DNA of 64,000 nt from Amphiscolops sp. MND2022 (lineage: Eukaryota), in assembly GCA_964187785.1 (NCBI GenBank), contig OZ076409.1, positions 52,578,001 through 52,642,000 on the forward strand, written 5' to 3'. Below the pieces are notes generated by a model, which was given only the letters and a program-made list of their open reading frames with translations, searched no databases and was not told where the DNA came from. Shown here piece after piece: positions 4,404 to 31,376 of the stretch. Numbering within the stretch: position 1 is the stretch's first letter; every line of letters starts with the position of its first letter. The position numbers and the translations under genes were made by a program.

Positions 4404-4423
4404 TAATGAAAAATAACTATTAA

Positions 4424-4837: not shown

Positions 4838-5095
4838 GCAAGCTTAGAAAAAAATTCACCAAAATTTTTTTTCTTAAATGAAGAAAATTAATAATTATTC
4901 AGCTCAATTTCAAGTTATTCAAAAGCCAGAGAATGAAAATAATAACAATCATATTCATAAGCAAAGCTCCTTCGGTAATAATTCAAAAAAGAAATTAAAT
5001 ATCAAAACAAAACCAAGAATTCATAAATAAGATATCCGCAAGTGGATTTAAACAATTTTTCTCCTAATAAATTGATCTATCAAATTTTGTAACCT

Positions 5096-6117
5096 ATGAT
5101 AAAAAAGAATCTCTTTTATTGAGTATTGCAAAATCTAATTTGGATATTGTTGAAAATACCTTATCTAAACCTCAGGAAACTCTAGAATTTAAAATGAATA
5201 AACAAAAAGAATCTTTTTCATTTGATATTCCTTTGGAATTGCCTGAACAATGGATGATGGGAGTAACAAGTTTAGAAGTATATAACACTGTATATAACAT
5301 TACTGAAAAGAATAATAAAATCAAACTTTTTGAAACAGACAAAATGTTAAAAGCATATAAAGTTGCCACTGAATTTATGTCAAAGATTAAAAAAATTATA
5401 TGAAACCTCCGGTAATAAAGGAATTTCTAATATAGAAGAAATTAAAAAACTTATAAATGATGATAATTTTAAAAAGGTTACACTTTCTGAAAATTATTAT
5501 GATGATATAAATAAAATAATTGTTCAAATTAACCAAAATATTAAAGATAAAACAAATATTATTGTTCTTGATGAATATAGAATTGTAACTGATTGCTTGG
5601 AAATAGAAATACCACCAGGAGCATATGAATTAATCGATATAAATAATGCCGTCCAACAAGAAATTATTAATTCTTGTAGTTCTCGTCTTGATTCTGATTT
5701 TAAAATCAACATAGGAGCAGACACAATATCAATGAAATCAGTTTTAACAACCTCTTATTCCATTTATTTCAATTCTGAACTAACCACCCTTTTAGGATTT
5801 ACAAACAAAGAATACTTAAAAGGAATTTATAGATCAGAAAAACCAGTCATGATAACAACGACAGACAAAGTTCATCTTAAATGTGATTGTGTAGATGGTT
5901 CAATTGTTAATGGGATTATAGAACAAAGTTTATTTTCGTTTAATCTTAGTGCTCCTCCCGGATATAAAATTATAAAAGAACCCAATATTATTCTGTATAA
6001 AAAATAAACAAAACAAGGTTAGATATTATTCAATTTTTCTTAGAAGATTCCAACCATAATCCAGTTGATTTCAACGGGGAGACATTAACATTTACCATTC
6101 AAATCATAAAGATTTAA
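5096..6117 (+). pseudogene. Minor capsid (penton-like) protein, frameshifted
   Basis: ORF pieces 5119-5403 and 5363-6007, plus a tail ending ...PVDFNGETLTFTIQIIKI* at 6117. Motifs VTSLEVYNTVYNI, IPPGAYE and VHLKCDCVDGSIVNG resemble Polinton minor capsids. Frameshifts occur at A-runs near 5100, 5395 and 6001. Confidence 0.75.
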
Positions 6118-6129
6118 AACTAATAATAG

Positions 6130-6513
6130 AGCTTTAATAAATTTAAAAATAATTCATATTGTGTTGGTGGAAAACATTATTCCGCTACCACAAATATTCG
6201 TGGAGATATTACTCAAAATAAAAAATCAGGAGCACCTGTTAAATTATTAAGAGGTACTTGTTCCTCTTGTAAAAGAAATAAATCACTTATAGTATCAGAT
6301 CAAACAATACAAGCAGAAGGATTAGGTGACTTTTTCCGAGGTCAGAATGTCGGAAAGAAAATTTTAAATAATCCTGGACGAGCATTAGAACTCGCAGCTA
6401 ATATTGGTACAGCAGCAGCAAGTAAAAATCCAAAACTCATTGCTGCAACTGCTCCTGATTTTATAAAATTTGTTCATCAAGGAAAAGGTCTGTACTTGGG
6501 TAAAATTCATTGA
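6130..6513 (+). pseudogene. Small basic Zn-ribbon/core-like Polinton protein, start codon damaged (absent from the ORF track)
   Basis: Open frame SFNKFKNNSYCVGGKH...RGTCSSCKRNKS...AEGLGDFF...HQGKGLYLGKIH* preceded by ATAG instead of ATG. Confidence 0.65.
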
Positions 6514-6562
6514 TTTACAGACTTGCTGTAAATTAAATATTATTTTTTATGAATAATAAATT

Positions 6563-7477
6563 ATGTATTCAATTCATAATCGAGATGATTTAGAAAAATT
6601 AAAAAAATTGCAAGAAACAAAATCTTCTTTGAAAGCTGAAAGACTAAAAGAGAAACTAGGGAAGCAAGACTTTCATTATGATATGGAAGAAGTTTTTGAA
6701 CCTGTTACTGAAAACCAGAAACAAAACCAAACTAAACAACAAGAACTTTCTGAAAAGCAAATACAAGCGCTACGTGATTCTACTCAAACTACAACACAAG
6801 CAATCGAAAATCAGACAAGAGCAATAGAACACAGTAGTGATATTTTAAATAAAAATTTACAAAAATCTATCAAAGATGCTAATTCTAACCAAGTAGACAG
6901 TTCAATTGTTAAAACAGTTTCTAACCTCCTCAACACCCAAAGTCAATTCAGATTAGAACCTGTGGAAGGTAATTTAAAATTACTCATTATCAATCCTTTT
7001 ACTAATCCTCAACAGGTATTAATCAAAGGTTCAACGATGACATTCCAAAATGGTAACACGTATTATTTGAATGATCTGGATCTTTCAAATTTCATTACTA
7101 ATACACAACACGATAAAATTAAAAACATAGCTGTGAAATATAATTTTTTACGTGATGTGAATTACTATTTAAATTATGGAGATAAAAAATCAAATAGATA
7201 TAACTTTATTAAATCTATGTTACAACCACAAATAGGAAGTGGATTAAATTTTGTTTCTCTTCCATCTGATCCAGATGAACTTGTAGATCAACTAAAACTA
7301 CTTTATTTTGAAAAAGTAGGAGGAAATGATAATCCTATGCTTAGTGAACAAATCATAGCAATTGCTGATAAACTTTTACAAGACCAATGCATTACAACAA
7401 ATCAACATCAAAACCTTATAAGCACATTTACTAAAAAGGATCAGTTTGTGGAGAAAAGATCTGGTATTGCGGATTAG
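6563..7477 (+). CDS. Polinton hypothetical protein (coiled-coil N-terminus)
   Basis: 304-aa ORF. The C-terminal QIGSGL...LPSDPDELVDQLKLL...GGN segment resembles a motif I recall from Polinton proteins. Confidence 0.7.
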   Translation: MYSIHNRDDLEKLKKLQETKSSLKAERLKEKLGKQDFHYDMEEVFEPVTENQKQNQTKQQELSEKQIQALRDSTQTTTQAIENQTRAIEHSSDILNKNLQKSIKDANSNQVDSSIVKTVSNLLNTQSQFRLEPVEGNLKLLIINPFTNPQQVLIKGSTMTFQNGNTYYLNDLDLSNFITNTQHDKIKNIAVKYNFLRDVNYYLNYGDKKSNRYNFIKSMLQPQIGSGLNFVSLPSDPDELVDQLKLLYFEKVGGNDNPMLSEQIIAIADKLLQDQCITTNQHQNLISTFTKKDQFVEKRSGIAD

Positions 7478-8394
7478 ATTCATTACATATCATATACTTA
7501 CTCCCATTTTTATCTTCTAACCTATTTATTATTAAATAATTATACTTATCCCGCCATGCTTCTTTACACAAACTTTTGAATTCATCATAAGACATATCAA
7601 AACCAGCAATATCTCTATAAATGTGTTCAACATCTTTCAATGTTTGTTGAAATAGAATTATAATATTACTATTGTTTCTAATTGTTCTTTTAGGCAAATC
7701 AAAGTATGACTGTGATAAAGAATAAACATCTAAATCATTATGTCTTTCCCTAGTAAAAAATGGATCTATTAATTTCTGTGAAGTGTCCAACATATTATCA
7801 AATACAACACAACAATTTTGAAAATCTTGAATACTTTTGTCTTCTAGATCTTCTTCTACTTTAACTTGTTCTATTTCTATGTTGCTGTATTGCTCAGGAC
7901 TCCTTGTAATAATATGAATTTTCCTTGTATTATCATCCAATCGAATTAATTGTAATTTGTTTAATAACAAATGGGTCTTACCACAAAATGATGGGCCAAC
8001 TATCAATGTCCTATTACAATTATTATGCAAAGCCAGCGTAGCTGTATCAATTTGATTATTATTATCATCAATTTGACTATCATTATCATCAATTTGATTA
8101 TTATCATCATCAATTTGATTTTCATTATCATCATCTTTGTTTAAATAATATACATCTTCCAATAATTTATTACATCTTTTTAAATGTTTTGATAAATAAG
8201 TTTTTTGAATTCCTTATTACAGAATTCACATTTTACTTTTTTATTGAAACATGCTATACATGTACTATACAATTAATCATTTTTATATTTGTAAAAATCT
8301 GTTTTCAGTATATTATACACTTTACATTTTTTTTATTCTCACAATCGGAACAGACAAATTTTTCATTACATTTTCCACAAAGTATACACTTCAT
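7431..8394 (-). pseudogene. A32/FtsK-like packaging ATPase 1 with N-terminal Cys-rich Zn-finger region
   Basis: Walker A GPSFCGKT, Walker B VVFDN (expected DD), RERH (expected GRH), SQSYF, IRNN. The frame continues upstream of 8162 through CEFCNKEFKKTYLSKHLKRC to an ATG at 8394 across one stop and one frameshift. Confidence 0.85.
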
Positions 8395-8414
8395 TTATTT
8401 AGTAAAAAATCACT

Positions 8415-8511
8415 AAATCACTAAGCAAATTCACTAAAAGCATGATGTTTTAAGTGTAACTTATTTGCTTAGTGACAAAAAAATGCTCTTAGTGAATTTG
8501 CTTAGTGATTT
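8415..8511. repeat. Intergenic 29-bp inverted repeat between the two ATPase genes
   Basis: AAATCACTAAGCAAATTCACTAAAAGCAT (8415-8443) pairs with 8483-8511 at 28 of 29 positions. Confidence 0.9.
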
Positions 8512-8560
8512 TACTAAGAAAATTACCAAGAAATCAAACCCAATTTTTTAGGTAATTGTT

Positions 8561-9584
8561 TCATTTTAAACTCTTTGCAATGCCAGCTTTATCGTAACTA
8601 ATTGCTTGTTCCATTATTATATTTTTAAAATCTTCTTTAAGTTTGTCTGAAGTTAATGGTTGTTGCATTCTATCGATGTAATTGTCTATTTTAGATTCAT
8701 TTACTTTAATTTTATTTTGTTTACAATAATATACATAATAATAAGCTACATTAAAAGGTGTTATTTCAATTGTTTGATCTGACATATCTTCTAGGAATAT
8801 TTTAAGTTTATTATATTCTTCACCTGTAAAGAAGTAACTTTCATATTTTACATAATCCTCGGGACCCCATTTATGTTTAGTTGTATCGTAGACTAGTTGG
8901 TACTTGTGGTTGAGTATTTTATACTTTTGTGATCTAGTATCAAATTCAATTACACCAAATTCTAATTGGTCACGATATTGTTTCCAATTAAGTTGTTTGA
9001 TACTATAACAACTCATCATTGTTTCGAAAAATGTATCTGGATTATTTATTGTGATAAATAACTTAAAACAATTTTCTCTAACAACAGGTAGAACATCCTT
9101 TGCATAATGTGCAAGATAAATAACTTGTATATTATGATGTCTTCCAAACCGGAATAAGTCTTCTACTTTTGTTTTGAGTTGCTTATAAGCACCCGCATCA
9201 TCTAAAAAGATTGTTTTAACAGCAAGTGATTCAATGTTAATATTTTCTAACTGCAACAATTGTACAAATCTACCCGGGAATTCCGCTTCATCTCTAGCGA
9301 ATACTATAAAATCGTTTTTAGTTTGATCTAAATAATACTTCAGGAAACTAGTATTACCTGATCCACTAGTACCACACCAAAAAATGACAATTAGTATTTG
9401 TGATTGGTTTGACTTGTGGCTCGTCTTTTGGGTAATCAGTTAGATGGGACTTTTTAAATCCCTTGAATTGTTTTTGTTTTTGGTATATTTTTTCGTAATG
9501 TTTGGGTCTAATATAATACCAATAAATATATAAAACTATAATAAAAATTACACATAATAAACCTATATAAAACTTTTTATTCAT
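8561..9584 (-). pseudogene. Second A32/FtsK-like ATPase with N-terminal transmembrane helix, frameshifted
   Basis: ORF 9366-9584 (hydrophobic IGLLCVIFIIVLYIYWYY) shifts frame near 9378 into CGTSGSGNTS (Walker A, K->N), then TIFLDD (Walker B) and FGRHHNIQVIYLAH. Confidence 0.8.
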
Positions 9585-9597
9585 TTATAGGAAATAA

Positions 9598-10452
9598 ATG
9601 AGTGAAAAGAAGAAAGAAATTGCTAAAGAAATATTCTCTCCTGTAATTAAGAAGTTTCAAAGAATTCAAATACAAACTCACTATAAAGATGAGTAATGGA
9701 GTATTGATCTGATAGACAGGTCTAGCTTAGCAAAATACAATAAAAACTACAAGTTTATTTTCACAATAATTGACAATCATACCAAATACGCATGGGCCAT
9801 TCCTCTTGAAGATAAATCAGGAAAAAGTACAACAACTGCATATAAAAGTCTTATTGAAAAAGCAAAAAGAAAACCTGATAAAATTTGATCAGATAGAGGT
9901 AAAGAGTTTTATAATAAAACATTTTTGGATTTCCTAAAAGAACAAAACATTCAAATTTATTCAACGAATTCAGATTTGAAGGCTGTTTTTGTTGAACGTT
10001 TCAATAGAACACTTCTGGACTTAATTAAAGAACCCATGTACATTGAAGGTAAAGCTTGTTGGTTGAATCACCTTGATGCTGCTATGGAAAAATATAATAA
10101 TCGTGTTCATGGTACAACAAAAATAACACCTTTTGAAGCTAATAATCAACCAATAGATCCACCTACTTTTGTTAATAAACCGAAACAACCCAAATTCCAA
10201 GTGGGAGACTATGTAAGAGTTCTTGATAAACGCAATTTATATAGTAAAGGTTATACAACAAATTGGAACAGAGAATTTTTTAAAATACATAAAATTAACA
10301 ATACAAATCCCGTTACATATGGTTTAGTAGATGAAAACAACGAACAAATAGAAGGAAAGTATTATGAACAAGAACTTTTAAGAAGTATATTCAACTTTAA
10401 ATCTAACAACAAAACGTTAGAAAGTATGAATATTTTCCACCAATATGAGTAA
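9598..10452 (+). pseudogene. Retroviral-like (rve) integrase of the Polinton, with two premature stops
   Basis: From ATG 9598: ...KDE*WSIDLID...IIDNHTKYAW...KI*SDRGKEF...VERFNRTL. The DDE triad is recognisable. Confidence 0.9.
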
Positions 10453-10469
10453 TTATATTTAAATGAATA

Positions 10470-10781
10470 ATGTCAATTCATAAATTTGGTTATAGTGCCG
10501 AGAGCCTACAAAAAGATAAGATTGAGAATCTTGAAAAAGAATTCGAATCACAAACCAAATTAATCAACTTAAAACTTAATGATATGCAAAGCACCATAAA
10601 TGGTATGACTGATAACCTACAAAGTGTACAAGAAATTAATTTTGATGATGGTGAAACCAAGGTAGTAGTCAATGTAAAGTTTTTCTTAGACATGAACAAA
10701 AATATCGAAGACTTGAAAATCAACCTGAAATACTTAGAACAAGATGTTAAAAATAAAATTTTTAGAAAAAAAAAGAAATAA
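10470..10781 (+). CDS. Polinton hypothetical protein (coiled-coil)
   Basis: 103-aa ORF in the compact co-oriented gene run. Confidence 0.55.
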   Translation: MSIHKFGYSAESLQKDKIENLEKEFESQTKLINLKLNDMQSTINGMTDNLQSVQEINFDDGETKVVVNVKFFLDMNKNIEDLKINLKYLEQDVKNKIFRKKKK

Positions 10782-10783
10782 TT

Positions 10784-11173
10784 TTGGATGCTGCCAAGTT
10801 AGTGGAAGAACAACAAACCATTTTACGTAATCATTTTGAGAGAAACCTTTTTTCGGAATTGGAAAAATGTCAAAATCAAGCAGTCAAAGATGTTATACAA
10901 CTATTGTACAACAAAGGATTGTTTGACTCATTTGAAAACAAAGACCAAATATTCCATGATTATTTAACATTTACACACCAATACTTGTTGGAAAAATACG
11001 GAAAAGAAATAAAGACATCAGATGGTGTGTATTATTTATCAGACTTAGATTTTTCAACGAGAGAAGATATCGTGAAGTGCTTGAAAAAAGATGAATACAA
11101 AGATACTGTTGATCTTAAATATAGAATGAAACTAACCGATACTGAGATTAATTTCATACTTTTTGAAGAGTGA
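10784..11173 (+). CDS. Polinton hypothetical protein
   Basis: 129-aa ORF with a TTG start, closely packed; may be a detached continuation of the previous ORF. Confidence 0.5.
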   Translation: MDAAKLVEEQQTILRNHFERNLFSELEKCQNQAVKDVIQLLYNKGLFDSFENKDQIFHDYLTFTHQYLLEKYGKEIKTSDGVYYLSDLDFSTREDIVKCLKKDEYKDTVDLKYRMKLTDTEINFILFEE

Positions 11174-11230
11174 ATACTTGTAAAATTTAAACTAAATACT
11201 TTATAAAATTAGGTTTTTATTTAAAGTTAA

Positions 11231-11752
11231 ATGAGTGAAAAATTGTACCCATGTTTACAACAAGATCAGAATCTTGATCTTAGAATAAAAGAAATAAATA
11301 GTTTTAATAATTCAATTCAAAATATAAAAAATATTCAAAATTTTTATAATCATGAAGCTAAAAAGTATAAAAAGAAATCTAAAATATTCAAGCTTATAAA
11401 TGGTTTAATTCAATCTATTGATGGAGTTTTATTATTGGGTGTTTCTTCAACTGCTATCACATTAAGTGTTACCGGAGTTGGACTTATTGTGGTACCAATA
11501 GCGAGTGGTATAGGTGCAGGAGTATCCATAATCAGTAAAATTCTTAACGAATACCTGAAAAGAAAAGAACAACACAATATTAAAAAATATACTCTTGCTG
11601 GTAGAACACTACATGATTTCTGTAAACTACATTCAAAATGTTTAGAAGACAATAAAATTGATCTGAATGAATACAACAAATTGAAACAAATTTACGATGT
11701 GTATAAAAACAATAAAACTAAACTAAATTCTGAGTTTACTTTTTTAGGATAA
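11231..11752 (+). CDS. Polinton putative membrane protein with a Gly-rich hydrophobic hairpin
   Basis: GVLLLGVSSTAITLSVTGVGLIVVPIASGIGAGVSIISKIL flanked by basic helical regions. Confidence 0.7.
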   Translation: MSEKLYPCLQQDQNLDLRIKEINSFNNSIQNIKNIQNFYNHEAKKYKKKSKIFKLINGLIQSIDGVLLLGVSSTAITLSVTGVGLIVVPIASGIGAGVSIISKILNEYLKRKEQHNIKKYTLAGRTLHDFCKLHSKCLEDNKIDLNEYNKLKQIYDVYKNNKTKLNSEFTFLG

Positions 11753-11820
11753 AATTCTTTAGTAAAAATAATATAAATATAAATTTTGAATCATCATCAT
11801 GAATATTTATTCTTATTTAA

Positions 11821-13065
11821 ATGGAATTCTTTTCATTGAAAAATAAATATGCTATGGATAAACCTATTCATAAAATTGATTTCAATAAATACTCACCTAG
11901 TAGTTTAGCTACAATTAATAATAGTAATTCAAATATTTCCATCATCTTCCCAAGAGAAGATGCATATATTTGTTTACAAAGCTCATACATATCATTAGAA
12001 TTTGAAGTTCTTAAAAATGATGATACAAGATATGCAGATGGTGATCAAATAAGCTTGGTCAACTCTGGACCCGTTGCTTTATTTAGCGAAGCTAAGTTAA
12101 CTACTAGTTCGGGCAAGCATTTAGAGAAAGTTGATAATCTACACCCAATTTCATTGATGTATAAACTTTTAACATCTAATCAACAAACAAGTCAATTGAT
12201 GTACGGGTTTGAAGAATCACAAGCAACTAGAAGACAAGAACTAACAAACAATAAAACAGAAAAAGGAACCTTTTTTGTTAGAATAAAATTAACTGATATA
12301 TTTGGATTTGCTGATCAAGAAAAAATAACTTATGGATTGGGTTATACTCTAACTTTAAAACGAAATAATATTAACGACCCTATCATCAGGGACAACGGTG
12401 TAGATGCTGCAAAAATAAATATAAAAGACATTTCCTGGTATATTCCACACTACACGCCATCAATGGAAAACCAACAACTCGTGATGGATCAAATACTAGA
12501 CAAAGATCCAACTGAACTGTATTATATTGAACGAGTTGTTTTTAGAAAAGATGTTAACACGAATAATAATTGGACATTTGAATTAGGTAATAGTGGAGAA
12601 TCAACACCAACTTTTGTAGTTGTTGGCTTTCAAGCTAGAAATAAAATTGATTCACAAACACATGCTAATGCAATATTTGATCGTTTACCTGTTTCAAATG
12701 CTGTTTGTAAAATAGGATCAGAAAAACATCCCGATGATGGAATGGAATGTGATTATGATAGAGACAAATATGATCAAGCATACAGTGAAATTGAAAACTT
12801 TTATTTGTTAAAAAGTGAAACTAATCTACTCAATCCGTTTATTGATATGCATAAATTCAGGACAAATTATAATTTTTATGTATTTGACTTATCCAAACAA
12901 AAAGATAATATTGCCAGTCAACCAATTAGATTAGAATTTAAATTTAATGCTGCCATTGATGTAGCAGATTATATAGCTTACGCCCTAGTCCTAACACCTA
13001 AACTGATAAGTATCAGCAGTGATGGACGAAGGCATTTTGATTTATTAGAATTAAATATAATTTGA
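11821..13065 (+). CDS. Major capsid protein (double jelly-roll type), intact ORF
   Basis: 414-aa beta-rich ORF with C-terminal PTFVVVGFQ and YNFYVFDLSKQ...IRLEFKF segments resembling Polinton MCPs; size and context fit. Confidence 0.8.
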   Translation: MEFFSLKNKYAMDKPIHKIDFNKYSPSSLATINNSNSNISIIFPREDAYICLQSSYISLEFEVLKNDDTRYADGDQISLVNSGPVALFSEAKLTTSSGKHLEKVDNLHPISLMYKLLTSNQQTSQLMYGFEESQATRRQELTNNKTEKGTFFVRIKLTDIFGFADQEKITYGLGYTLTLKRNNINDPIIRDNGVDAAKINIKDISWYIPHYTPSMENQQLVMDQILDKDPTELYYIERVVFRKDVNTNNNWTFELGNSGESTPTFVVVGFQARNKIDSQTHANAIFDRLPVSNAVCKIGSEKHPDDGMECDYDRDKYDQAYSEIENFYLLKSETNLLNPFIDMHKFRTNYNFYVFDLSKQKDNIASQPIRLEFKFNAAIDVADYIAYALVLTPKLISISSDGRRHFDLLELNII

Positions 13066-13177
13066 ATATATAATAATACAGCTTTGCTGATATATAATAA
13101 ATAAATTTATTAAATAATGTTTTTATTTTTATAAAATGATAATAATTATAAATAAATTTATAAAAATTTTTTTATTT

Positions 13178-16100
13178 CTATAAAACATGTGCTCGATCAC
13201 TTATCAACTTCACAAGTTGTTGATGGGTGAGTGCTTGTTTCCAATTCCAAACATTGAAATAAATTTCTTCATCTGTTTTCTTGCTACCGTCAACATTTAT
13301 AGTTAAATCTTTATAATACAAACCAATTAATTTCAAACAATATATACAAGGACAATCGCCTTTTTGAGTAAGTTTATCCCATGGTAAACTTTGTATTGAA
13401 TTTATATACAAACGTTTATCGTCAAAAGGATTCAAACACAACTTAGGTTGTTTTTCAACTGTAAGGTTGTGTAAATTAGATTTAATTGATATATTTGTAG
13501 AACTTGATGTTTCTGAATTAAACAATGAATTCTGATGTTCTTCACATTTGGGAGCTTTTTGTATTCCTTTTTGTTTCGCTTTTTGAATGTTATTATTGTA
13601 ACTAAAAGAATATGACTTTGATCGCAATGCTGTGAAGGTATCTAACACCAAAACTGGACTTGTTTCAATTTTCATTTTTCCTATAACTTTCTTGTTAATA
13701 GGATCATATAATTCATGAGATTTGTGTAATTCACTGAAATCAAATTCATCTTTGTTTTCTTGTAAAAAGTTTATTAGTTCTTGGTGGTTTGTCTCAAAAC
13801 TAAGTATGAAAGAATCAGTATCCATGTAGCGTAGTTGTATGGATTGTTTCCAATATGGTTGTAATTTGTTATAATAAAATTCATACATTAATAGTTTTGA
13901 TAGTTCTAAAACTGTAAAACCTAAACAAATTGGTTAATCAAAGACTGTTTTTTCTTTATCAAACTTGTACACACTAAACTTAGAATAATGATCCACAATG
14001 CCTTTGAAACTTAACTTGGATTGTCTTGTTATTATTTGGTCTGTTTGAGAATGATCAATGAATTCTAGATTGGTTCTATCTCTTACATTTTCCATAGTCT
14101 TCCCAAAGAAAGCATTATTCATTAATTTATATAGATCCTTTTCAAAGTTTGTTTTCGCTACTGTGCGTTTCTGAGTATTATGATCGATATATTTACCTAA
14201 CCATGGACTTTGTTTAAACTTATAGATAGTATGTATCTTCGTTACTTTCATCCCTTGGTTAAGATAAAACTTAAACATCCTATAATGTATCATATATTTC
14301 GATTTATTGGTTACATCACACATAAGTTTTGATGTTGGTTTGTAATTAGGTTGATTTACATTATTCATATAAGCTGAGAATAAGTCTGGATCTGCTTTTG
14401 TTTGATACGGACAAAAAGGAAAGTTTTTTGTTTTTTCTTTAATTTCAACAGGATATTCTAAATCACATTCTATAAAGAATCCATATTCATTATCATCAGG
14501 TATTTGTAACAAATCTTCTACTAATTGCTCTAAATTGTAATTACACGGATTAAGAGGTAATATTTCGAATTCGCCAGTAGGATGATATTGACTCATTGCC
14601 CATCCATATAGATTATTTGCATCGATATATAAGATTTGTTTATTTTCATCAGATTGCACGTGACGATCTCCCATTACACTTGAAATTCCTCCACGGATAT
14701 TATTTTCAAGTAATAGTAATAATTCTTTATCTTTTATAAAGTCTAACTTTATATTAGTCAACTTCAATCCTGCTTTCCATGTATAACCAGGTAGAGAGTA
14801 ACTATACAAAGGATTAATTTTATATTCTCGTGTAGAACTTTCCACAAAGTTTTCAAGTACATCAGCTAATTGAAGAACATCCATTTTTAAATATAACATT
14901 GTTAATTCTCTTCCATTTTCAATTTTATTTTTATCAATTAATTCTTGGGTTCTTTTTATATCATCATCTGATGGATAAGATTGTGTTAATGTTGACCAAT
15001 AATCTTCTTTAGTTAAATTTAATGGTTCCCGAAAGTTATCAAGATTTAAGTCTTCATAAGGATAAGCCAATTTCTTTTTAAATAATTTGTCTTTAAATCC
15101 ATTTTCATCCATTATAGGCAAGTTGTCTAAACTCCTAACTAATTTATCTAAACTACTACTTAGAAAACGGTATGAATATAAGAATCTCAAACAGCCTATT
15201 TGAACTGATACATAACTTTCTACTGACTTTGGGATTGTTTTTGGTTCATACCCCTTTTCGAAAGCTTGTATTAAGAGTTCTTCAAATATAAGATGACAAT
15301 CATAACCACTGAAATTATGGAAAAATATAGGAACAAAACTTGATGACCTTTGCTGGCTTTGTATGTTACATATATTATGAGCTGCTCCTCTGTATTTTCC
15401 TGTTGGATGATCATGATCTCTAACCTTAGTATCATCGAGTGGATTTTCACAAAGCCAACACTCTTCTGCTTGTTCAAATTGTACTTCTTCTTCTTGACTC
15501 ATTTCTAATTCTAAATTTGTTTTAAAATATTTATTTGCTTCTTGTTCTAATATTAACATTTCCTTCACAAACCATTCGTTACAATCTGTTCCAAAGTATG
15601 AATTATACTTGTTTCCAAATGGTGAAGTTACATAAAAGCCTACTGCAATTGGAATTTGTTTAAATAATACTTTGGGGTCTTTTCGAGGTTGATTAATACA
15701 TTCAAAATCCGCATATACTCTTATTGATACAGGAACTTTCATATAATAATCTTCAAACTTTAACTGATTCTTCCAACTGAATGTGATATTAGTTGGTTGT
15801 TGTTTTATACATCTTTCTATGTGGTTGTTTAGAACATCGTTTGAATAAAATGCAGTAAAACATCTTCTACAAACATGTTTCATGTGTGAATCTTTATTTA
15901 TTAAACAATGTAACTTTGTAATTGAACAATAGTGATTTTTATATAACATTAAATCAATTTGTGGTTGTTTGTAATTTTCGTTAATATAAATTGGTTTTAA
16001 AACATTTCCAGTGAGTTCAAATACATTTATACCATGACCTCTGATATTCAATTTATTACGTCTTTCAAATTTGGGAATGTCTTTGACTTTCATAGGCAAT

Positions 16101-16939
16101 TCTAAACCTTGTATATTAAGATTATTTTCATACATTAAATAATTTGATGTTCTATCTTTATGATCCTCAACAGGATATAAATATGCTAGGATACACCATA
16201 AAAAACAATATTGATCATTATTCTTTATATTTATAATTGATTTACTATCCTTATATTTTCCTGGTAACTCAATGTATGAAGATGCTTGAATATCTCTAAC
16301 TTTATATATTTCTAATATAACTTCTTCTACTTCTTGAAAATGAAAACCTGATCCTTCTAATTGTTCATCATCTATTTTCTGCATTAATTTGTTATGAATT
16401 TCTTGTTGCATACTATTGTTATATATTAAATCTGATTTTATCCATCTTTTAAATACTTCTTCTTCTCCATTGACTATTTTTGAAAATTTAGCTAGATAAC
16501 TCAATTGATATTTATATCGGGGAAAATAACTTTTACTAAGTAATTCATTTATGTTATGTTCAAGATTTTCAGTTGGATTTACTTTCAGTTTAATGTATGT
16601 GTTTTCGTTCATAATTATATTTACTCCATTACCGAAATCTGTAATACAGCTTCGCTGGCTTTGCATACCGTTTTGTTGACGGTTTTGTAAATGAAATTCA
16701 CTTTGGAAATGTCTTGTTTTATCTGTTATATAATTACCACATTCTTCACACCATACTTTTTCATTTTTATTTTTGTGTTCATCTGAATTTAAATGAGAAC
16801 TTTTATCTGAGATATTCATATATAAATTACATGAGTTACAATAATATTGCCCCAATTTTTCTTGATGTTTTACTGATTTGTTATGAGCTAATTTGAAAAC
16901 TTTTTTATAATATAAACCACAAATCATACAATATTCCAT
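13178..16939 (-). pseudogene. Protein-primed family B DNA polymerase, one in-frame stop at 13934-13936
   Basis: ExoI YADFE, ExoII HNFSGYD, motif A YIDANNLYG, motif B KLMNNAFFGK, motif C YMDTDS. The two ORFs are in frame across TAA. N-terminal Zn fingers and an EndoVII-like insert are present. Confidence 0.95.
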
Positions 16940-18179
16940 TTCTATTTATTAAAGAAAAAATAGTATAATTAAAAATTTTTCAATTATGATTTTTCAAAAA
17001 ATTGGTGAAAAGTATTTTAGTTTTGTGGTGTAAAGGTATTAAAATTTGCCACAGATTTGAATGATAAATATTTCATTTAGGAAAATTTTTATAATCTGTA
17101 ATCAGAAACTCAAGACCTTTCTAATGATGTATCACACATGGTAATATCTTGAACTTTTATAATCTCTACATGTTTAAGGGTTTCAGATTTTTCGAAGTTT
17201 CAGTTGGTATACATTTGTACTAGGTTTTCGAATTGTACCTAGATAGATAGCCCTTGTCAAGACCTTTTCAAAAGTATATTATACTTTGTTGTAACTCAAA
17301 TATTCGTTGAGTTATGGCTTTTTTCTTGACCTATTAGTAATCTCTACATGTTTAAGAGTGAAAGTCTGAATGGAAAAAGTTGCCACTTGAGTGCTTTTCA
17401 AGTAGTTTTTGACCCTTTAATCTTTTTCAAAATCATTTTTCTCGAAAACTATATTAGGTAGAAATTTGAAATTTTCAGGGTAAACTACTCAGGGTATGAG
17501 CTAATGATTGGAACCGAGACCGCCAAACTCCGACTCTTACCATGGTAAGATGCTAAGGGCTATCCTTAAACATGTGGAAATTGGGTATAGCAAAGAAAAA
17601 ATCCATTTTTCACACTCGTTTTAACGCCTGGTAATCAATGGGTAGATTGTATAGCTCAGAAAAAAATGTGCGTACCTTTTGATTATTGAAATAAATCGAG
17701 TATACATTTTACCACCCCCAAAACAATATATTACAACTATTGCATCAAAGTCTCTTTGCCTGTTTCATTCCTTCGACCATTCTGTTTGCTGTGACTGTAG
17801 AGAGAAAAGTGAAAAATGAAATTTTGGTGCATTCCGAATGCACCTCAAGGTCAAACGACCGTCTGGTGCGTGAAATTCTGCTTGAAATTTATATGGTGGT
17901 AATTTTTCCAACAGTTGTGGTGTCCACTTGTGCGCATCAGTGAATTTATCCATAATGAAAAATGTGTTCATCAATTTTTATATATAATTTTTTAATGGCT
18001 AAAAATGAAGAAAAAAACTCGTTTTCAATTGGGACACTTGTGTTTTCTACTTGAACGCATTTGCTAAGTATTCATTTTTTCTTCACGATGTGGTAATAAT
18101 TCTATTATACGTCGATGGAGCTTAGTTCAATTTTTGTTTGTGACAAATGTTTCTTTGGAAAATTTGTGCATCGATTTTT

Positions 18180-18412
18180 ATTTTGTTAATTTTTTAGTTG
18201 TGAAAAATGACTAATTTTTAGATGGTTTACCTTGGTTATTTTTTAACAGTTAGTTGTGAAAAAAAAACGTTAATTTTAGATGATTTGCTTTGAAAAAATG
18301 TTATTTTTCAATAATTTTTATTACGGAAAAAAACGTTAATTTTAGATGATTTTGGTTTTTTTGATGTTATTTTTTATTTTTTATGGGCGTATATCGGGAA
18401 ATAGCCTACTAC
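18180..18412 (-). repeat. Polinton right terminal inverted repeat
   Basis: Ends ...GGGCGTATATCGGGAAATAGCCTACTAC, the reverse complement of the left TIR. Confidence 0.95.
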
Positions 18413-18583
18413 AATTCCTAATGGACGGCGTGTCCAATTTCCTCAGTCAAGCGGGACTGTCTTGGGAGAGTGTTGTAGTGGTTAGTTATAAGAGATCGAA
18501 TACAAGTTCCCATTGCATGCGGCAGCCTGCGACATCTCCAGTACAGGCGGAATGCTCTAACCACTACGACATTGCTCCCGCTA
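18410..18583. repeat. ~170-bp direct repeat, right copy, abutting the right TIR
   Basis: Same orientation as, and near-identical to, 4005-4173. Confidence 0.95.
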
Positions 18584-19290
18584 AACATAAGACTCGAAAA
18601 CTGCTTTTACCATACTCGGAATACCAAAAAATTCAAACTTTGGATACATTTTTTCGAATTGTTCTCATTTGTTCTCGTTTTGAAAAGTCTCATTGTGCTA
18701 TAAAAAAACCCAAAAGAAAACCCTCTAGGTTCGCAATAATCATTTTTCTAAATAAAAAATTTTTTAAAGATTTGGGCACCCTTTGAGAATTGAACTTTTC
18801 TCGAAAAAACTCACGCCGTGCAAAAAAACCGTAGGTTTTTTCTCACAGGTAATGAGAAAAATCTCATCAGTCCCACGGGACATGAAAATGACCAAAGTTG
18901 TTACCCTTAAAACTTTGAAACTTTCAAAACTTTTGAACACCTCAAAAAATTGAAAATTGAATAGGAATTTTTTTCGAGAGCTTTTGATTTGTTTCCATCA
19001 TTCTAAAAATGCAAATGGGCTGCAATAAAAAAAAAGAAAAAATGCCGCAGAGTACCGAAAAACCAAAGGAGGGCCCTTTGGTCTTTCCTCTAACTTTGCA
19101 AGCACTTCGTTTAGTGTGGGACTCACCTTGAAATTCGCGTGAACCACTGGGCCAAAAGGCCGCGGGACTTTTAAATTCAACTCCATTTAAATTTATTATT
19201 CCACTTGAAGTTTATAAAAGTAGAAGCTTCACAGTGGTAGGAGAAAAATTGGTACTGTCAAAGTCGTGCACTTTTTTCAAAAAGCGATAA
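18584..19290 (+). mobile_element. Diverged non-autonomous repeat resembling the DINE/HINE-like family at 35799 and 54446
   Basis: Shares the AAAGGAGGGCCCTTTG motif and a terminal ACTGTCAAAGTCGTGCAC...AAAAGCG segment. Confidence 0.4.
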
Positions 19291-20356: not shown

Positions 20357-21842
20357 ATGGACTGTTTTACAGGGCTTGTAAGTTTCCTGTTTTTTATATT
20401 CACCGCCATAGTATGTGTGGTAGGGCTGGGTATGATAGGAATCGCTTCCTATTGGATGGTAGAATACGATTATATCAATGAAGCAGCAGACACTAACTCA
20501 TTGTCTTATGTCTCAATTGCAGTCATCGTTCTGGGTTAGCACAATTATTGTTCATGTACAGGGAATTTAAGGAGTCAACTTCTTTGCTTGATAAGTTTTG
20601 AGTATTACTTTTTGCTTTTGATACTTCACATATTCAAAAGTTAAGTTTGCTTTTCATCATAGGACAAGAACGTATGTTATCGAAAACGTAGGTCAAATTA
20701 CACAAAAAATTGGCGCTCATCAAAGGAAAAACGTTATCAAGTGAAGCAATCCTTAAACTTTTAGATACATATTTTGAATTTTTTGAAGTTGAAAATTGCG
20801 AAATAACCTTGAATAGTTACCGTCACAAATTTAAAAGTGTTATATATTGTTAATCTTTACTGAGGAAAAAATTGGTAGAATAAATGTATGATTGACTCAC
20901 AATGATTGACTGTTTTCACAGGTGTGGTCCTGTTTTTCATGGGCCTGCTGGGTAGCTGTGGCACGTGCAAGAAGAGCAAGTGCATGCTTTACCTTTTCGC
21001 AGTGTTCCTGTCCGTGATTGTGATTGCTCAACTGGCTCTCTGCATCTATGCCTTCGTGGAGCGGAATGACGCAGAAGATCAAATCAAGAAAGGCCTCCAT
21101 AAAACGGCTGTTAGCACCCTAACTAGCTATTTTTTCAGAAAATTATGATTATTTTAGGACACTATCTATTTTTTTCGTCAAGATTCAATGTAGTATAACA
21201 TTGGATTTATAAGCAAAAAAATAGTGTCTTTAACAGTCGCTGAGGTCAAAGGGCTGTAAAATTTGAAAACCATTGCATTGATTAACTTTCAAGTCAATTA
21301 CTCGTTTTCTTTTATCGACAATACGCATAAGTTGCAAATTCATAATTCCTCTCCATTCGGCTTGTTTATATGATTATTTGGAAATAAAAGAGACATGTCT
21401 GTTATTACATCACATTTTTACATTTCAATTTTCATTCCAGGAGCAGTACCTGACGGACAAGAACATGATGAAGGCCTGGGACGAAATTCAATCTGACATC
21501 AAATGCTGTGGTTCCTGGGACGGCGCCAATGATTGGTCAGGAATCCTTGTTGTCAATTCTGTCCCTAAATCTTGCTGCATGAACAAGGCTTGCAAAGCAA
21601 CAGCTTATGAATGCAAAGCAGCTGACGGGTCCGAAAACACAGTGGACGCCCAGTGTGTTCAAAACACGGTCGTTAACATTTACTCTGAAGGCTGTGGGAA
21701 GAAAGTTGTCGACACTGTTAAAGATAACCTTGTCTTGGTGGCAGCTTGTCTCCTGGTTTTCGTTTTCCTCCAATGTTTGGGAATCTTTTCTGCTATTTTG
21801 ATCGCAAAGTCCTCCGGAAGAGATTCACCTCAGTATGCATAA
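20357..21842 (+). CDS. Tetraspanin (host gene), 3 exons: 20357-20534, 20922-21109, 21441-21842; 255 aa
   Basis: GT..AG introns with consistent phases (1, 0). Four hydrophobic helices, GLLGSCG, large-loop CCG, PKSCC and EGC motifs. AATAAA near 22225. Confidence 0.93.
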
Positions 21843-22259: not shown

Positions 22260-23311
22260 CCCGGGTCGACCCTCCATGGATATCTTAGTAAGATCTTGGC
22301 AAGATCTTGCCAAGATCTTGGAAAATTCTTAGCTAAGATCGTGACAAGATATTGCCAAGAATTGCAAGATGCCATGGTAAGATCTTATCAAGAGAGCCAT
22401 GTTTCCAAGAAAAATCTTACTAAGAAGCCCAATATGGCAAGAAAAATCTAACTAAGAAGCCCAATATGGCAAGAAAAAAATTGCTACGAACTGCTCGATA
22501 TCGAGAAAAAGTAAAATCAGAAAACCATTAAATTAAGAGTTATGCAAAAATAATCTAGACATCACTCTGATTGAACAAAATTACTGAATGATTTTTACAA
22601 CCATTTCGATATCGATTTTTTTTCAATTGCAAAACTGTCCCCAACAACGGCGTCAGATAAGCCTTGAGCAGTCATTACCCCAAATAGAGCAATGACCGCC
22701 GTGTCTAGCAGTAATAAGGCTGCCAACTAAACAGGCTCAAAGAAAGCTGGAAATATGATTCTTGCAAAATTTTCAGGATTTTAAGGTCTTTCCTTTGTAA
22801 CTTTCCGATAGTGGATCTAGACGTTTGAGAGCATATTTCTCCGTCTCTGGAATCGACAGGAATGATAAATTACAAGTTTTGAAAAGCCCTCGAAATTACC
22901 TTTCATTTGGTACATTCGGCATTTTTCAGTCTTAAACAGGCGAGGAATTATTAGGATTCTCGTCAAATTTTCTGAAGCCAGACTACGTTATCGTAATTTT
23001 TCACGCATTTTTGCATGCAAAATTTTTTCAGCAGGTTTAAGCATTTTGATTATGAAAACGAGTAGAAATAGTCGTTGTTGGGTGAAATGAGCCTTTAGAT
23101 TGAGTCTCGGCTGCTTGTACCGAAGGTATAGTGTTTTTTAATAATCTTAAAATTTTGTCCATCGTGATAAGATACGATCTTGGAATAAGTATCATCTTAG
23201 TAAGATCTTAATAAGAATCTTGCCATGGGATCCATGGCTGCCAAGATGTACTAAGAATTTGGCAAGATCTTGCCAAGACAGCCAAGATGCTAGTAAGAGG
23301 GTCAACCCGGG
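22260..23311. mobile_element. Non-autonomous CMC/EnSpm-like DNA transposon (MITE), copy 1
   Basis: TIR CCCGGGTYGACCCTC, subterminal TCTTGCCAAGA repeats, 2-bp TSD CA. Confidence 0.85.
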
Positions 23312-24236: not shown

Positions 24237-25183
24237 CCCGGGTTGACCCTCCATCGATATCTTAATAAGATCTTGCCAAGATTTTGGAAAAATCTTAGCT
24301 AAGATCGTGCCAAGATATTGCCAAGAATTGCAAGATGTCATGGTAAGATCTTATCCAGAGAGACATGTTCCCAAGAAAAAGTTTAATGCAAAATCCTATT
24401 TGATCAGAAAAAAATCTGAAAGGAAGTCAACAAAATCAACATTTTTGCAGATTTATATTGTTAGGCATCAAAATTTCTGTTGACAAGGTATAAAGTTTGA
24501 TTGCAGAGTCCTTAATGCTTTCTATTTAGGGATGCACTGATTTCATTGTTCTATCAAACTGTCGACAAAAACGGCGTCAGAAAAGCATCGAGCTGAATCA
24601 TTACCCAAACTGGGGCAATGACCGCCGTTTCTAGCAGTAATATGATAGCAGGAGATATGATTTTCCAGTGTAACTTTCCAATTGTGGCTCTGGACGTTTT
24701 AGAGCAATTTTCTCCGTTTCTGGAATAGACAGGAGGAATAAATTACAAGTTTTGGAAAGCCCTTGAAATGAGCTTTCATTTGGAACATTCGTATTTCCCA
24801 GTCTTAAACAGGTGAGCAGTTATTAGGATTCTCGTCAAAATTTTGGAAGCCAAAATACGTTATCGTACTTTTTCACGCATTTTTGCATGCAAATTTTTTT
24901 CAGCAGGTTTAAGCATTTTGATTATGGAAACGGGTAGAAATGGTCGTTGTTGGGTAAAATGAGCCTTCAGATTGAGTCTCGGCTGCTTGTACCGAAGGCA
25001 TAGTGTTTTTTATAATCTTAGAATTTTGTCTATCGTGATAAGATACGATCTTGGAATAATGTATTATCTTAGTAAGTTCTTAATAAGAATCTTGCCATGG
25101 GATCCATTGTTGCCAAGATGTAGTAAGAATTTGGCAAGATCTTGCCAAGACAGCAAAGATGCTAGTGAGTGGGTCAACCCGGG
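24237..25183. mobile_element. Non-autonomous CMC/EnSpm-like DNA transposon (MITE), copy 2
   Basis: Same TIR and internal sequence as copy 1; 2-bp TSD AG. Confidence 0.85.
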
Positions 25184-26303: not shown

Positions 26304-28789
26304 TGTCGTAAGCTTGTTTGTGGTGATTGTCAATAAAACAGACATTGAGGAGGTCAACGTTGCTATTGGTAGGTCATCGGACTCCTCAAGAGCGTTAAGT
26401 TCAAGTTCTCTCTCCAAGTGAGCAACTATTTCATCGTATGAGCCATTTCGAAGCCTGGCCATTTTGACTGACCGTTTCATTTTCGGTGGTAGTTTTGCGT
26501 ACAAGAGATTGTCAATCATTTTTTGAGCATGGTCTCCAAACGCCTTCTCTGCCCCTTGATTGAGTTCTTCTAAAAAAATCGGGTAGTTTGATCGTGTTAG
26601 GATCAAACACCAGACGGTGCCATTTGTGCTTGGTGGTCGCCTGAGATTCAGGTTTGATGTATTTGCGTCTAAAGATGACTAGTACGTCTTCAAGAGTTTG
26701 TCTATTTGCAGTGCTGATGTTTCTGAATGTCTGCAACGCATACTTCCTCAAAAGTGAGTCGAAGTGGTTTATCTTCATCTGCTCAGACATTTCACGCTGC
26801 ATCTTGATCATCGTGTGGAAGAGATCTTCGAACAGCTCGAACTTCTCGCTTTCATTGTACTAGAGTTTACCGGTCCGATAGTGAGTTATTGGGCTGTCGG
26901 ACGATTCTGCATACTTGTCAAGACGTCAGCTAGTCTGTTGATTGGGTCTGATTCTGCAGCTGTTCTCTCTTGTGCTGGGATCGTCGTGTCGAGTAGGGGA
27001 TTATGTTCGTCATCGGGTTGATTGAGATGACTTCACGATGGGATTCGTCCCGTGAGAAACTCGGGAACTAGGATTGGAGATTCGTTTTCTCCTGTCACCA
27101 TGTCGTAAGCTTGTACGTGGTGATTGTCAATAAAACAGTCACGAACTGGCTCACTCCTCACGTTGCCTTTGATTCTCTCACTGCGGCAATCTTCGGAAAT
27201 AAGTTCAGGTCTCTCAACTGGAACGTTCCATCGATTTTGTGTCAAGTGGCCTGACCCGGCCTTTAAGGCATTTTGTATCTGGGGCAATATTTGATTACTA
27301 ATAGCATCGCTAATTGCCCTCTGAATTTGAATATTGACATTATTCATCATATCATTCATGTTCCTAGACAGCCTTGAGTTAAGTTCACTCGACAGTTTGT
27401 TGATCTCGGCATTGGAGCTAACTCTTGCTGATTTCTGATCCTGACTGGTGTTAATACCAGGTCTAGCCTCTACATCATTCAGGTATAAGTTTTCTTCGTT
27501 GTTTTCAAACTTATCACTAATGACACTTCCTGGTGTCCTAGCTGAGTTACTGTTCGCACTTTTCTCTCTTTCAGAATGCCTTTAACCTAGCATTATGTCT
27601 AGATTTTTAATATCCGAGAGTTTCTAATTCTCTGGATTTCCTTGCTTTTTTCTGTTTCCTTGTAGTAGGCATCAAGAATCTAAGTACAAATATTTGAATT
27701 ATTTATATGGTCGGAAAACTAACAGAGAACGGTTCTGAATGGTAAGAAACGAAATTAATGAATCTCCCAAGAGGGATGTGGGTATTTATACCTCCGAAAG
27801 AGTGACACTCACATTCTTTACATTTTCGATCATGAAAAATCACAAGATTGTTGGAGTCCTAACTCACGTGGTTAATCATGAGGAAGCGAGGAAGCATCGA
27901 TCAATGCCTTCAATTTGGCGGTTGACGGGACTACTACGTCAAAGCATCAGTCAAAACAAAATATCTAAACAACTAAATGCTGAACATTCCTTGTTAAATC
28001 TTCATGTTGTCAACGATTCATCATCTCCATACTGCTGAGGTGCAAATATTCAAAATAAGTAGCATCAGCTTCGAGCACGTGGTGGGACGTTAGATTCAAA
28101 GTGGGACATGGGTGAAACAATTTACATGTGGTGGATAAATACTAAATAGACCTAATAAGGCCGGCGTACTCAATACCATGCAGTGATTAAAGACCGGTAT
28201 AGAACCGAAGACCAATCTATAGTGCTATCATAATAAATCAACAATCAACACTTCAAATCGTCATTAACAGTCCTTTTCATCCCTTAAGGGCTGTTTTATT
28301 AACCAAGTATGCATCAATAATCTACCGTACTGAGTATTAGCACTTTAAAACACATTGCTTTGATCGGTCGGAACCGGCCCTTTACCTAAACAGTGCAAGT
28401 GAGTTAACAAATCTCAGGCAAACGGCCATAACCGGCAAGTAATTGGACTGCACTATATTAATGAAGGCTTGTGATTGGTTAAAACATACTAGCAAGCGAC
28501 ATTGTCGCAAAGGTACGGGAACCCAATTGAACTCGTTTCAGTTTTGCTTTGCAGTCAACTTTCCTATTTCGCTCTTGTATTAATTCACATGTACAGCCCT
28601 TCAAATAGCACACTTATGTTAACAGACTATTAGTACTTGTGTATAAAAAATAAAATTATGATATTACATGCGGCAAAAGTTTATTCTTAATGACAGTTTT
28701 TTAAAACATCGGTAAAGTGCCGGGTACGGTCTCCTGTCCGGACGTCGTAGTCGTAATCCTGGTACCATCACCGGCGGCAGCCTGCGACA
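26304..28789 (-). mobile_element. Internally deleted Gypsy element: 5' LTR 28789-27101, PBS, gag fragment, last ~40 bp of the 3' LTR
   Basis: LTR TGTCGCA...TACGACA; PBS TGGTGACAGGAG; gag ORFs 26226-27359; LTR end repeated at 26304-26341; TSD CTATA on both sides. Confidence 0.9.
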
Positions 28790-29331: not shown

Positions 29332-31168
29332 TGTCGCAGGCTGCCGCCTGTGATGGCACCAGTTATAAGACTTCGACTGCTGCCCAAGATATAACACCGG
29401 AACCTTACTATTGAAACCCTCTATTGAAACACAAACTTGTAAATCTATTAAAACAGTACGATTAGTCAGTTACACTATAGTGAAAACACCGTTGCTACAT
29501 TTGTATTAATACTAGTCTGTTAAAATATTACGATTTGGAAAGTTGTTAGATTCAAAAGCTGTATTCGTAAAGTTGAAAACTGGATAAATGCTGTGACAAA
29601 TTGAGAGCAATTTAATCGCAAAGAGGAAATGTGTTCAAGTGCGGAAACGTCCTGTCTCGGCGCAGTAGCTCTCAGTACATTATCCAACCAATCTTAGAGC
29701 ATATTTATTAAATTGGCCGAGTAAGGACAAATGACGCAACTTTACTCTTCTTACTTGATTTTTCAGTCATTAGGCCAGTTTCGGCCTCCTTCAAAGTAAA
29801 GTGCAGCGAGAAAATCAACTACCCTTATAATCAAGTAATACTTGATTGTTTGTGCCTTTAATAATGAATTTTGTCTCAGCAAAAGCTACCTAGCTGCTTT
29901 TCATTTATAACAACCATTTCTGCGCTACGATCATTCACCCTCTTACTTCTGTTAAAATAGAATTAGTCAAATGGCCTGCTCCGGTCTAATCAAGTAATGT
30001 CGTTATATTCTTTGTTCATTGTTAGTTGCTCTCAGTTTAGTTGCGCTATATCATCTGATGACAATGAAAAATGCTAAACGATATTGTGCCAGATATGTCG
30101 AAGCTACCAATCTTTGAATCAATCTAGACCATTATTTATGATGCAATGCTAGGCCAAAGGTCCATATTAGGTCGTTATACCATGTAAACCTTTGCATGTG
30201 ATATTACTGTTTCCAGAAATAATACTTTTCACGTGGCGACGCATGCAAGTAATTTGTACTCGAGTTTCTTTGTAATTTGTTTACATTCCCGAAGTGGCTG
30301 TTTGTTTGAAGTTGCATTCTTTAGTGTAAATCAATGTCAGGAATTTCCTTCCATTAGGGTGCTTATTCAAATATGACATTCACGAGACCCTTTGTGGAAA
30401 GGTGTCACTTGGTGTCAAAAGATAAGTGCTTTGCTGTTGTGTTTAGTAAACATTGCAAATATGTGGAAAATGTGATTGTCACCCTCTCGTGAGTATATAT
30501 ACCCGTGTTTTCCTTGGGAGGGACACAATTGTTTTAGTCCTACAGTATTTGTTACACTGTTTTAGACTGCATAATTAGATCACCCATTAAAATATTTCAA
30601 CCTGAAATCTCAATGCCTACTACGAGAAAGCAAAAGATAGCTAGGAAATCAAGAGTCTTAGAAATTCTCTCTGACATTGAAAACTTTGATATAATGCTTG
30701 GTGAAAATCACTTTATTACAAGAGAGAGAGAGATGAAAGCTGGAACAGTAATCAAGCTAGAAGACCTGATAGTGTCACTAGTAACAATATTGGGAATGAT
30801 GACGAGAGTTTGTACCAGGACCGTAGAGATATTAGTTCAGGGATTGATGCCGATTACGGCCAAAACTCAGTCGGTACCATTTCTCCTGCAGAGATTAATA
30901 GATTGTCGAGCGAATTGAACTCTATAATAACTAGGGAGATGGATGAGATGATGAACAGTGTCTTTGTTCAAATACAGAGAGCCATAAATGACGCCATTAG
31001 TAACCAAGTCTTACCTCAGATTCAAAATGCCATTATGGCCGGTTCAGGCTGATGGACCGGAATCAAATTCTGATGTTCTGCGAAATGTATGCAATAGAGA
31101 TAACTCAAGAAGTGAGCATATCCAAAATCATCAAATTGATTATCAACCCAATCACAATGCTTACGAAA
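29332..31168 (+). mobile_element. Gypsy LTR (solo or truncated) containing the MPTTRKQK ORF at 30613
   Basis: Starts TGTCGCAGGCTGCCGCC and ends ...GCTTACGAAA (the 27101 copy ends GCTTACGACA). No TSD recovered. Confidence 0.8.
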
Positions 31169-31376
31169 TTTTTGTCTGCATAGTGATGCGTATCTTGCAA
31201 GAAATTTTTCTTGGTGATGCAAGTCTTTCAAGAACCTTGCAAGATTTTTACAAGATATAACTTTTCTGTCAGATTCTTGCAAGATTTGCTTTTCTGCCGG
31301 AATCTTGCAAGATTTACATTTTTCATGATTGTCTGGCAGGATTCTTGCAAGCTACGTCTTTTTCCTGACCAGGGAT
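31169..31376. mobile_element. Terminal fragment of a CMC/EnSpm-like MITE
   Basis: TCTTGCAAGA repeats ending in ...CCTGACCAGGG. Confidence 0.55.

Follow-up and report, generated by a model that had tools for sequence, protein, structure and literature searches.

The evidence supports reducing the match of the 16-nt motif TGTCGCAGGCTGCCGC at 18519-18534 (minus strand) to a local duplication, in which an ordinary LTR start would have been copied together with 49 nt of adjoining DNA. The duplicate belongs to one direct repeat that abuts both TIRs of a Polinton, and a one-ended Polinton integration, finished by microhomology-primed host synthesis, is in our judgement the probable origin of the arrangement. 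Among the explanations offered by an earlier, sequence-only reading of this DNA, the third, a duplicated LTR/host junction, fits these observations. In particular, the proposed check of whether the upstream 49 nt are constant or unique to the locus found them solely in the two repeat copies within the window (the whole 64-kb stretch of DNA analysed), which points to a local duplication, and the LTR part of the repeat is family sequence.

The motif is matched at 16/16 at 18519-18534(-), 28774-28789(-) and 29332-29347(+) and at 15/16 at 4109-4124(-), as had been claimed, and a fifth copy, absent from the earlier note, lies at 53310-53325(+) with 14/16. These five matches with at most two mismatches compare with 0 expected in the window, and any match at all was found in 0/100 shuffled sequences. 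The left copy, previously placed roughly where the LTR ending at 2520 should begin, proved to be the start of that LTR (LTR A, 4124-2520). The members of the LTR family, elements A-E, are arranged as follows.

2520-4124, minus strand: LTR A, the 5' LTR of element A (TG...ACA, 1605 bp), with its start TGTCGCAGG at 4124
2508-2519, minus strand: PBS-like TGGTAACAGGAG, directly after LTR A and inside the gag frame (MVTG); the same motif follows LTR B at 27100
1412-3069, minus strand: gag of element A, broken (tblastn with P0023)
564-1160, minus strand: protease remnant of element A, after gag (gag-asp_proteas, E 6.7e-4)
26304-28789, minus strand: element B, with 5' LTR 28789-27101 (1689 bp), PBS-like TGGTGACAGGAG, gag and ~42 nt of the 3' LTR end
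29332-31168, plus strand: solo-type LTR C, its end decayed or interrupted
53310-55085, plus strand: solo LTR E (1776 bp, inserted repeat included), flanked on either side by ACAAC
56932-57486, minus strand: accessory-ORF remnant of element D, between pol (63.6-61.8 kb, tblastn) and the 3' LTR (profile iE 2.3e-19)
2520-3069, 27101-27672, 30613-31168 and 55287-55813: LTR-encoded gag starts

The motif at 4124 evidently marks the true 5' end of the LTR. The start is fixed because 5-bp TSDs are present at B and E, and because the matches to the accessory-protein profile described below begin at 4125 and 18535, with none further upstream. The 3' LTR of element A lies outside the window, so the TSD evidence comes from B and E. 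TATAG flanks element B on either side, and the window holds a single ACA+TATAG. The TSD of LTR E is weaker, since there are seven instances of ACA+ACAAC in the window and two in the 9 kb that were searched, but the match falls at the expected length. No TSD was found for LTR C. A start of LTR A 11 or 39 nt further out was ruled out by the accessory profile and by B, C and E. Similarly, a reading of 2520 as mid-gag coding sequence, not an LTR end, was ruled out by the duplicated end of B with its TSD and by the breakpoints of gag homologs; the position is both.

Element B has lost the part from mid-gag to the last ~42 nt of its 3' LTR (26304-26345) and has kept its TSD. LTRs B (28789-) and C (29332+) stand back to back, 542 nt apart, and between them lies a 130-nt tandem pair of an AT-rich repeat family with related pieces at 35980-36095 and 54700-54767. 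In the solo LTR E, which also contains the inserted repeat, the leader is shortened to 793 nt before the ATG; element D (the part at 55287-57486) ends ~200 nt from this LTR, on the opposite strand.

The Gypsy label for this LTR family is provisional. As far as the available portions of PMC7264820 and PMC3601003 describe Ty3/Gypsy elements (Metaviridae), the family shares with them TG...CA termini with 5-bp TSDs (TATAG at B, ACAAC at E), a PBS-like sequence beginning TGG, and RNase H ahead of integrase, as seen in element D; the protease follows gag in element A. The PBS-like sequence TGGT(A/G)ACAGGAG follows LTRs A and B, and a search for a polypurine tract before the 3' LTR gave only short G-rich runs, in the metagenome loci L002 and L003. 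No RT motif was found in the window. Gag shows a weak match to DUF1759 (7e-5, below the cut-off), a model associated with BEL/Pao elements. Gag sequences of this kind may come from acoel worms.

The 16-nt motif codes for SQAAAC(D/N)G, which belongs to the tail of an accessory ORF extending into the LTR. Metagenome contigs, scanned for the motif pattern, yielded three loci that contain it (L001, L002 and L003). In L002 and L003 it stands in an open frame of 273-299 codons (...G(L/V)SQAAACDG...), and the flank of L001 is unrelated.

L002, 3-899, minus strand: accessory ORF
L003, 22-843, minus strand: accessory ORF

The motif pattern had no match in viral contigs, and the accessory ORF has no Pfam match. 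A search for its family returned 597 matches, and among the 120 listed the motif is present in 83, in 73 of them as exact SQAAAC(D/N)G; the 50% representatives gave 222 matches, with the motif in 66 and the exact form in 41 among the 150 listed. The proteins are ~250-340 aa long, with an acidic, proline-rich N-terminus and a CxxCG motif ahead of the SQAAACDG tail. Codon-position evidence is mixed: 14/18 differences from L002 fall at third codon positions, in loci that had been chosen by the motif pattern (L001-L003), and the variable columns are distributed over codon positions 3/1/2 as 4/3/1. The real evidence for coding is the protein family.

The profile built from the 50% representatives matches all five LTR starts (iE 6.5e-8, 4.3e-7, 1.3e-6, 8.7e-6 and 0.03). 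The weaker similarity that had been described downstream of the motif is real as protein and unconvincing as DNA: in alignments of LTR nt 17-130, the score of A against C was reached by 133/500 shuffles and that of A against B by 20/500. Because the profile matches the five LTR starts, and because a remnant lies between pol and the 3' LTR of element D, the arrangement is that of a sense accessory ORF after pol with its tail inside the LTR. A sense ORF at this place is a known category in Ty3/Gypsy elements, and elements with such additional ORFs between pol and the 3' LTR are described in the portions of PMC7264820 and PMC3601003 available to us; unlike the ORFs described there, this one has no Pfam match and carries its last ~30 codons in the LTR, and the gag start lies ~550 nt inside the LTR. 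The 3' LTR of element D, with its ORF-LTR junction, is without the 16-nt motif. Coding, together with the LTR's own TG end, accounts for the conservation of the motif, and no shared att site is needed. The first ~25 nt of the LTRs can be folded as a hairpin (C at 29332, -14.7; B at 28789, -10.0; E at 53310, -10.4; A at 4124, -6.4 kcal/mol). Several open frames antisense to element D occupy 58361-60710(+). They stand between its pol and accessory ORF, where the GC content of the window is highest; the three that were tested had no Pfam match.

The LTRs are 1.6-1.8 kb long, and the gag frame that begins inside them reads through the PBS. In A, B, C and D the gag ATG is preceded, at a distance of 118-131 nt, by a TATA box. 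In LTR A this distance is 131 nt, and the LTR also includes the first ~183 gag codons and, at its start, the accessory-ORF tail. The LTR family is thus, by its reading frames, apparently coding at both ends, which is unusual. Our gag-family set comprised 148 proteins (120 listed of 163 matches, and 28 new cluster members), and the LTR-encoded part of gag is present in 145 of them. In five of these 145 homologs the gag sequence breaks off early; in four the break falls at reference positions 182-184, where the LTR ends, and in the fifth at 187, the pattern that would be expected of solo LTRs reading into their flanks. In P0055, P0060, P0136 and P0138, gag gives way to unrelated sequence where the LTR ends, and in two cases this sequence belongs to another retroelement ORF (645 and 913 aa). 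With a TATA box, an ATG and ~183 codons open into neighbouring DNA, every solo LTR is a possible source of fusion ORFs. No gag loci were found in the metagenome contigs, and a brief literature search gave no precedent for so long an overlap between gag and an LTR. Coding sequence overlaps the LTR also in HIV, where nef extends over U3. In Ty1, as the available part of PMC5454406 describes it, coding overlaps both LTR and PBS, with gag reading through the PBS as here; unlike in the present family, the overlap there is short (a 53-nt UTR, with the PBS at RNA nt 95-104), against ~183 codons and coding at both LTR ends.

The direct repeat consists of LTR and flanking sequence in both of its copies.

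4005-4173 (4005/8), no strand: left copy, continuous with LTR A; LTR nt 1-120 (4124-4005) and 49-nt flank (4125-4173)
18410-18583 (18410/3), no strand: right copy; 122-nt LTR stub (18413-18534) and 49-nt flank (18535-18583)
18519-18534, minus strand: first 16 nt of the duplicated LTR stub, which from nt 3 reads S-Q-A-A-A of the accessory-ORF tail
18557-18579, minus strand: inverted arm in the flank, a near-copy of LTR nt 46-67; in the left copy, 4148-4169 against 4058-4078

The copies agree at 166/169 aligned bases, with two indels, and positions 18410-18412 are common to the right copy and the Polinton end. Each copy holds its own derived changes relative to the family sequence. The peptide at the start of LTR A matches P0317 at 24/25 aa, the match to the P0317 tail persisting up to the Polinton junction, so the LTR part of the repeat is ordinary family sequence. 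We propose that the repeat has no function of its own and holds a dead 120-nt LTR stub.

Comparison of the 100-nt flank with those of B, C, E and L001-L003 gave scores equalled by 188-640/1000 shuffles, and P0317 has an internal ORF upstream of its LTR start, not the 49 nt. The idea that the 49 nt are left over from internal sequence preceding a 3' LTR, in a tandem LTR array, was rejected: no DNA or protein similarity to the sequence upstream in L002 and L003 was found, the profile matches stop at the LTR start, and the P0317 upstream sequence differs. In viral contigs, nothing matched the flank pattern exactly. The label of a tRNA-like unit, given earlier to this segment, did not hold, since ARAGORN reported 0 tRNA genes and Rfam gave no tRNA match at E<=5 in the 64 kb or at E<=10 in 18400-18700; readings of the flank as a tRNA, a SINE head or a ribozyme were rejected for want of a model match. 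By appearance alone, we take the flank to contain something like an A box.

The 22-nt inverted arm agrees with the LTR at 19/22 with one gap, a score equalled by 13/5000 shuffles, and through it the repeat segment folds with z -4.4 on the plus strand and -2.5 and -3.0 on the minus strand. Since the arm is present in both repeat copies, it predates the duplication. It may be templated filler, the remains of an LTR piece in inverted orientation or a product of chance; a reading of the hairpin as a MITE was rejected, as it has no TSD of its own.

The element between the repeat copies contains the following features.

4173-18412, no strand: Polinton/Maverick, 14.2 kb, AT-rich, with stops in the integrase and polymerase frames
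4173-4406, plus strand: left TIR, intact AGTAGT end, the join probably integrase-made
18177-18412, minus strand: right TIR, its end motif lacking one base of the canonical form, 3-nt TAC overlap with the target, the join probably host-made
8561-9439, minus strand: packaging ATPase (Pfam Pox_A32, E 2.1e-6)
9889-10452, plus strand: putative retroviral-type integrase, core and C-terminal part (rve_3 at E 0.11 only; SDRG motif; named partly by inspection)
11821-13065, plus strand: double-jelly-roll major capsid protein (Pfam DJR-like, E 2.1e-18)
13178-16945, minus strand: putative protein-primed family B polymerase, split by one stop (motifs by inspection)

The integrase frame is broken by stops just upstream of 9889-10452. 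At the polymerase frame Pfam gave Endonuclease_7 alone (E 1.2e-4) and no match to a PolB model; the motifs that we see there by inspection are presumably those of a protein-primed PolB. The TIRs, 233-236 bp long and identical at 225/233 positions, are within the class range of 100-1500 bp. By its gene set the element appears to be a Polinton despite the missing 5-8 bp TSD: no TSD of 4-9 bp was found around it in 16 end combinations with one mismatch allowed. The accessible parts of PMC8097293 and bioRxiv 10.1101/2023.08.22.554363 describe Polinton/Maverick elements, like this one, as 13-25 kb long, with TIRs, (AGT)2 ends and capsid, ATPase, integrase and polymerase genes. According to the same portions, their TSDs are normally 5-8 bp (bioRxiv 10.1101/2023.08.22.554363), and the ends are often (AGT)2//(ACT)2 with a 6-bp TSD (PMC8097293); (AG)3//(CT)3 is the other end motif of the class. 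Unlike them, the present element has a flanking repeat of 166-169 bp in place of the TSD, and, with the (AGT)2 motif at its left end, is one base short of (AGT)2//(ACT)2 at its right. The last three bases of the right end, TAC, are also the first three of the repeat, with a local chance of 0.019 (~0.02).

The Polinton has two adjacent ATPase-like frames, at 7431-8213(-) and 8561-9439(-), and in the former a tandem repeat of 21 nt (8046-8150) is part of the coding sequence. The 1.2 kb from the polymerase start to the right TIR (16945-18177) are free of long ORFs and GC-richer than the remaining Polinton, and may hold a secondary insertion.

We infer an order of events in which the LTR came before the Polinton, since the repeat contains the LTR/host junction. 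The Gypsy-type element A would have inserted first, its LTR beginning with TGTCGCAGG at 4124 and with at least 49 nt of host flank on the right, and the Polinton would later have inserted 49 nt outside the LTR A start. Its left end (AGTAGT) would have been joined cleanly by the integrase. The right end, having lost at least one base, would have annealed by 3 nt (TAC) to target sequence ~166 nt away, within the LTR. Host DNA synthesis primed there would have run over the LTR start and the flank and on into the distal arm, probably along the sister chromatid. On the map, the plus-strand 3' end left free at 18412 would anneal to 4005-4007 and be extended rightwards past 4173, the outcome being a target duplication of 166-169 bp in place of the normal ~6-bp TSD. 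Substitutions in the repeat (3/166) and in the TIRs (8/233) do not differ at the low power of this comparison (Fisher p 0.37), nor do difference events (5/166 against 11/236, p 0.45, also of low power), so that repeat and TIRs are compatible with one age. The mechanism is reconstructed from a single locus, at which the junction signal consists of a 3-nt overlap and a single missing base; the truncation of the right end could be mimicked by a point change in its last base after insertion. The 22-nt inverted arm in the flank is left without explanation by the one-ended model.

The same map, likewise without a TSD, would result if two normal Polinton insertions 166 bp apart on different alleles had recombined through the element and duplicated the interval. 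The divergence of the TIRs is nominally above that of the repeat, as this history would have it. Nevertheless, we regard it as unlikely, since it requires two insertions within 166 bp and predicts two intact ends, so that chance would have to account for both the absent base and the 3-nt overlap. Improbable, too, is an assembly artefact in which two haplotypes, with and without the Polinton or with differing flanks, were joined and ~170 bp shown twice. The five differences between the repeat copies could then be allelic, but the repeat ends exactly at both TIR termini, its divergence is of the same order as that of the TIRs, and the sole N run is distant (32466-32665).

Long duplications could instead be a regular trait of the Polinton lineage, arising by uncoupled distant strand transfers or by routine joining of one end. 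The accessible portion of PMC12220804 gives a TSD for 58% of the elements in two rve-integrase clusters, on comparison of 50-bp flanks, a survey that would presumably miss long duplications; against a regular trait, which we hold to be very unlikely, stand the single element seen here, the published TSDs of 5-8 bp in the portions available, and the absence of any related Polinton locus from the viral contigs. Most improbable are the two other origins suggested by the sequence-only reading, an independent LTR-derived, tRNA-headed parasite and a site recognised by both integrases. The folding through the 22-nt arm and the A-box-like look that we ascribe to the flank would suit a chimeric parasite, but the LTR part is unaltered family sequence, no second locus of the flank was found in the 64 kb, the tRNA and Rfam searches gave no match and the hairpin has no TSD. 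As to the shared site, the Polinton joins lie off the motif, one of them 49 nt outside the LTR start and the other 117-120 nt inside it. The role of LTR termini as integrase signals is standard in the portion of PMC3601003 available.

One-ended integration with host synthesis would give the Polinton junctions the signature established for retroviruses, in which a long duplication follows one-ended integration. There the free 3' end, in many cases truncated, uses short homology to prime extension by a host polymerase, and host duplications of hundreds or thousands of bp are the most common result (PMC5041404). Like the aberrant HIV-1 and ASLV integrations reported in that paper, the Polinton has one normal end, one truncated end with short homology, a predicted retroviral-type integrase and a host duplication far longer than the normal TSD. 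Unlike those events, which were drug- or mutation-induced and experimentally mapped, the Polinton case is natural, germline-fixed or segregating, and deduced from one junction pair. In a limited search of open-access literature we found no report of one-ended integration with a long duplication for a Polinton. Polinton integration is known almost only from sequence, and the junction pair looks like a natural half-finished event. It is very doubtful that the lineage routinely integrates with duplications of 100 bp or more, with one integrase-made and one host-copied end. If it did, long-duplication copies would form part of the 'TSD-less' Polintons in surveys that reach only 6-50 bp from the TIRs, and Polintons would regularly give rise to local duplications, in the present case one of the promoter end of a retrotransposon.

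The window also contains an older tandem duplication of ~1.9 kb (22260-23311 and 24237-25183, 82-93% identical), which adjoins a tetraspanin exon (21282-21842), and a 48-nt inverted pair at 20934 and 23551. A further element, at 36306-37608, has 43-nt inverted ends and an internal 30/31-nt palindromic minisatellite of the GCAAGATCTTGC type; units related to this minisatellite are present at 22290, 24270 and 31190-31350, and the last of these abuts the end of LTR C.
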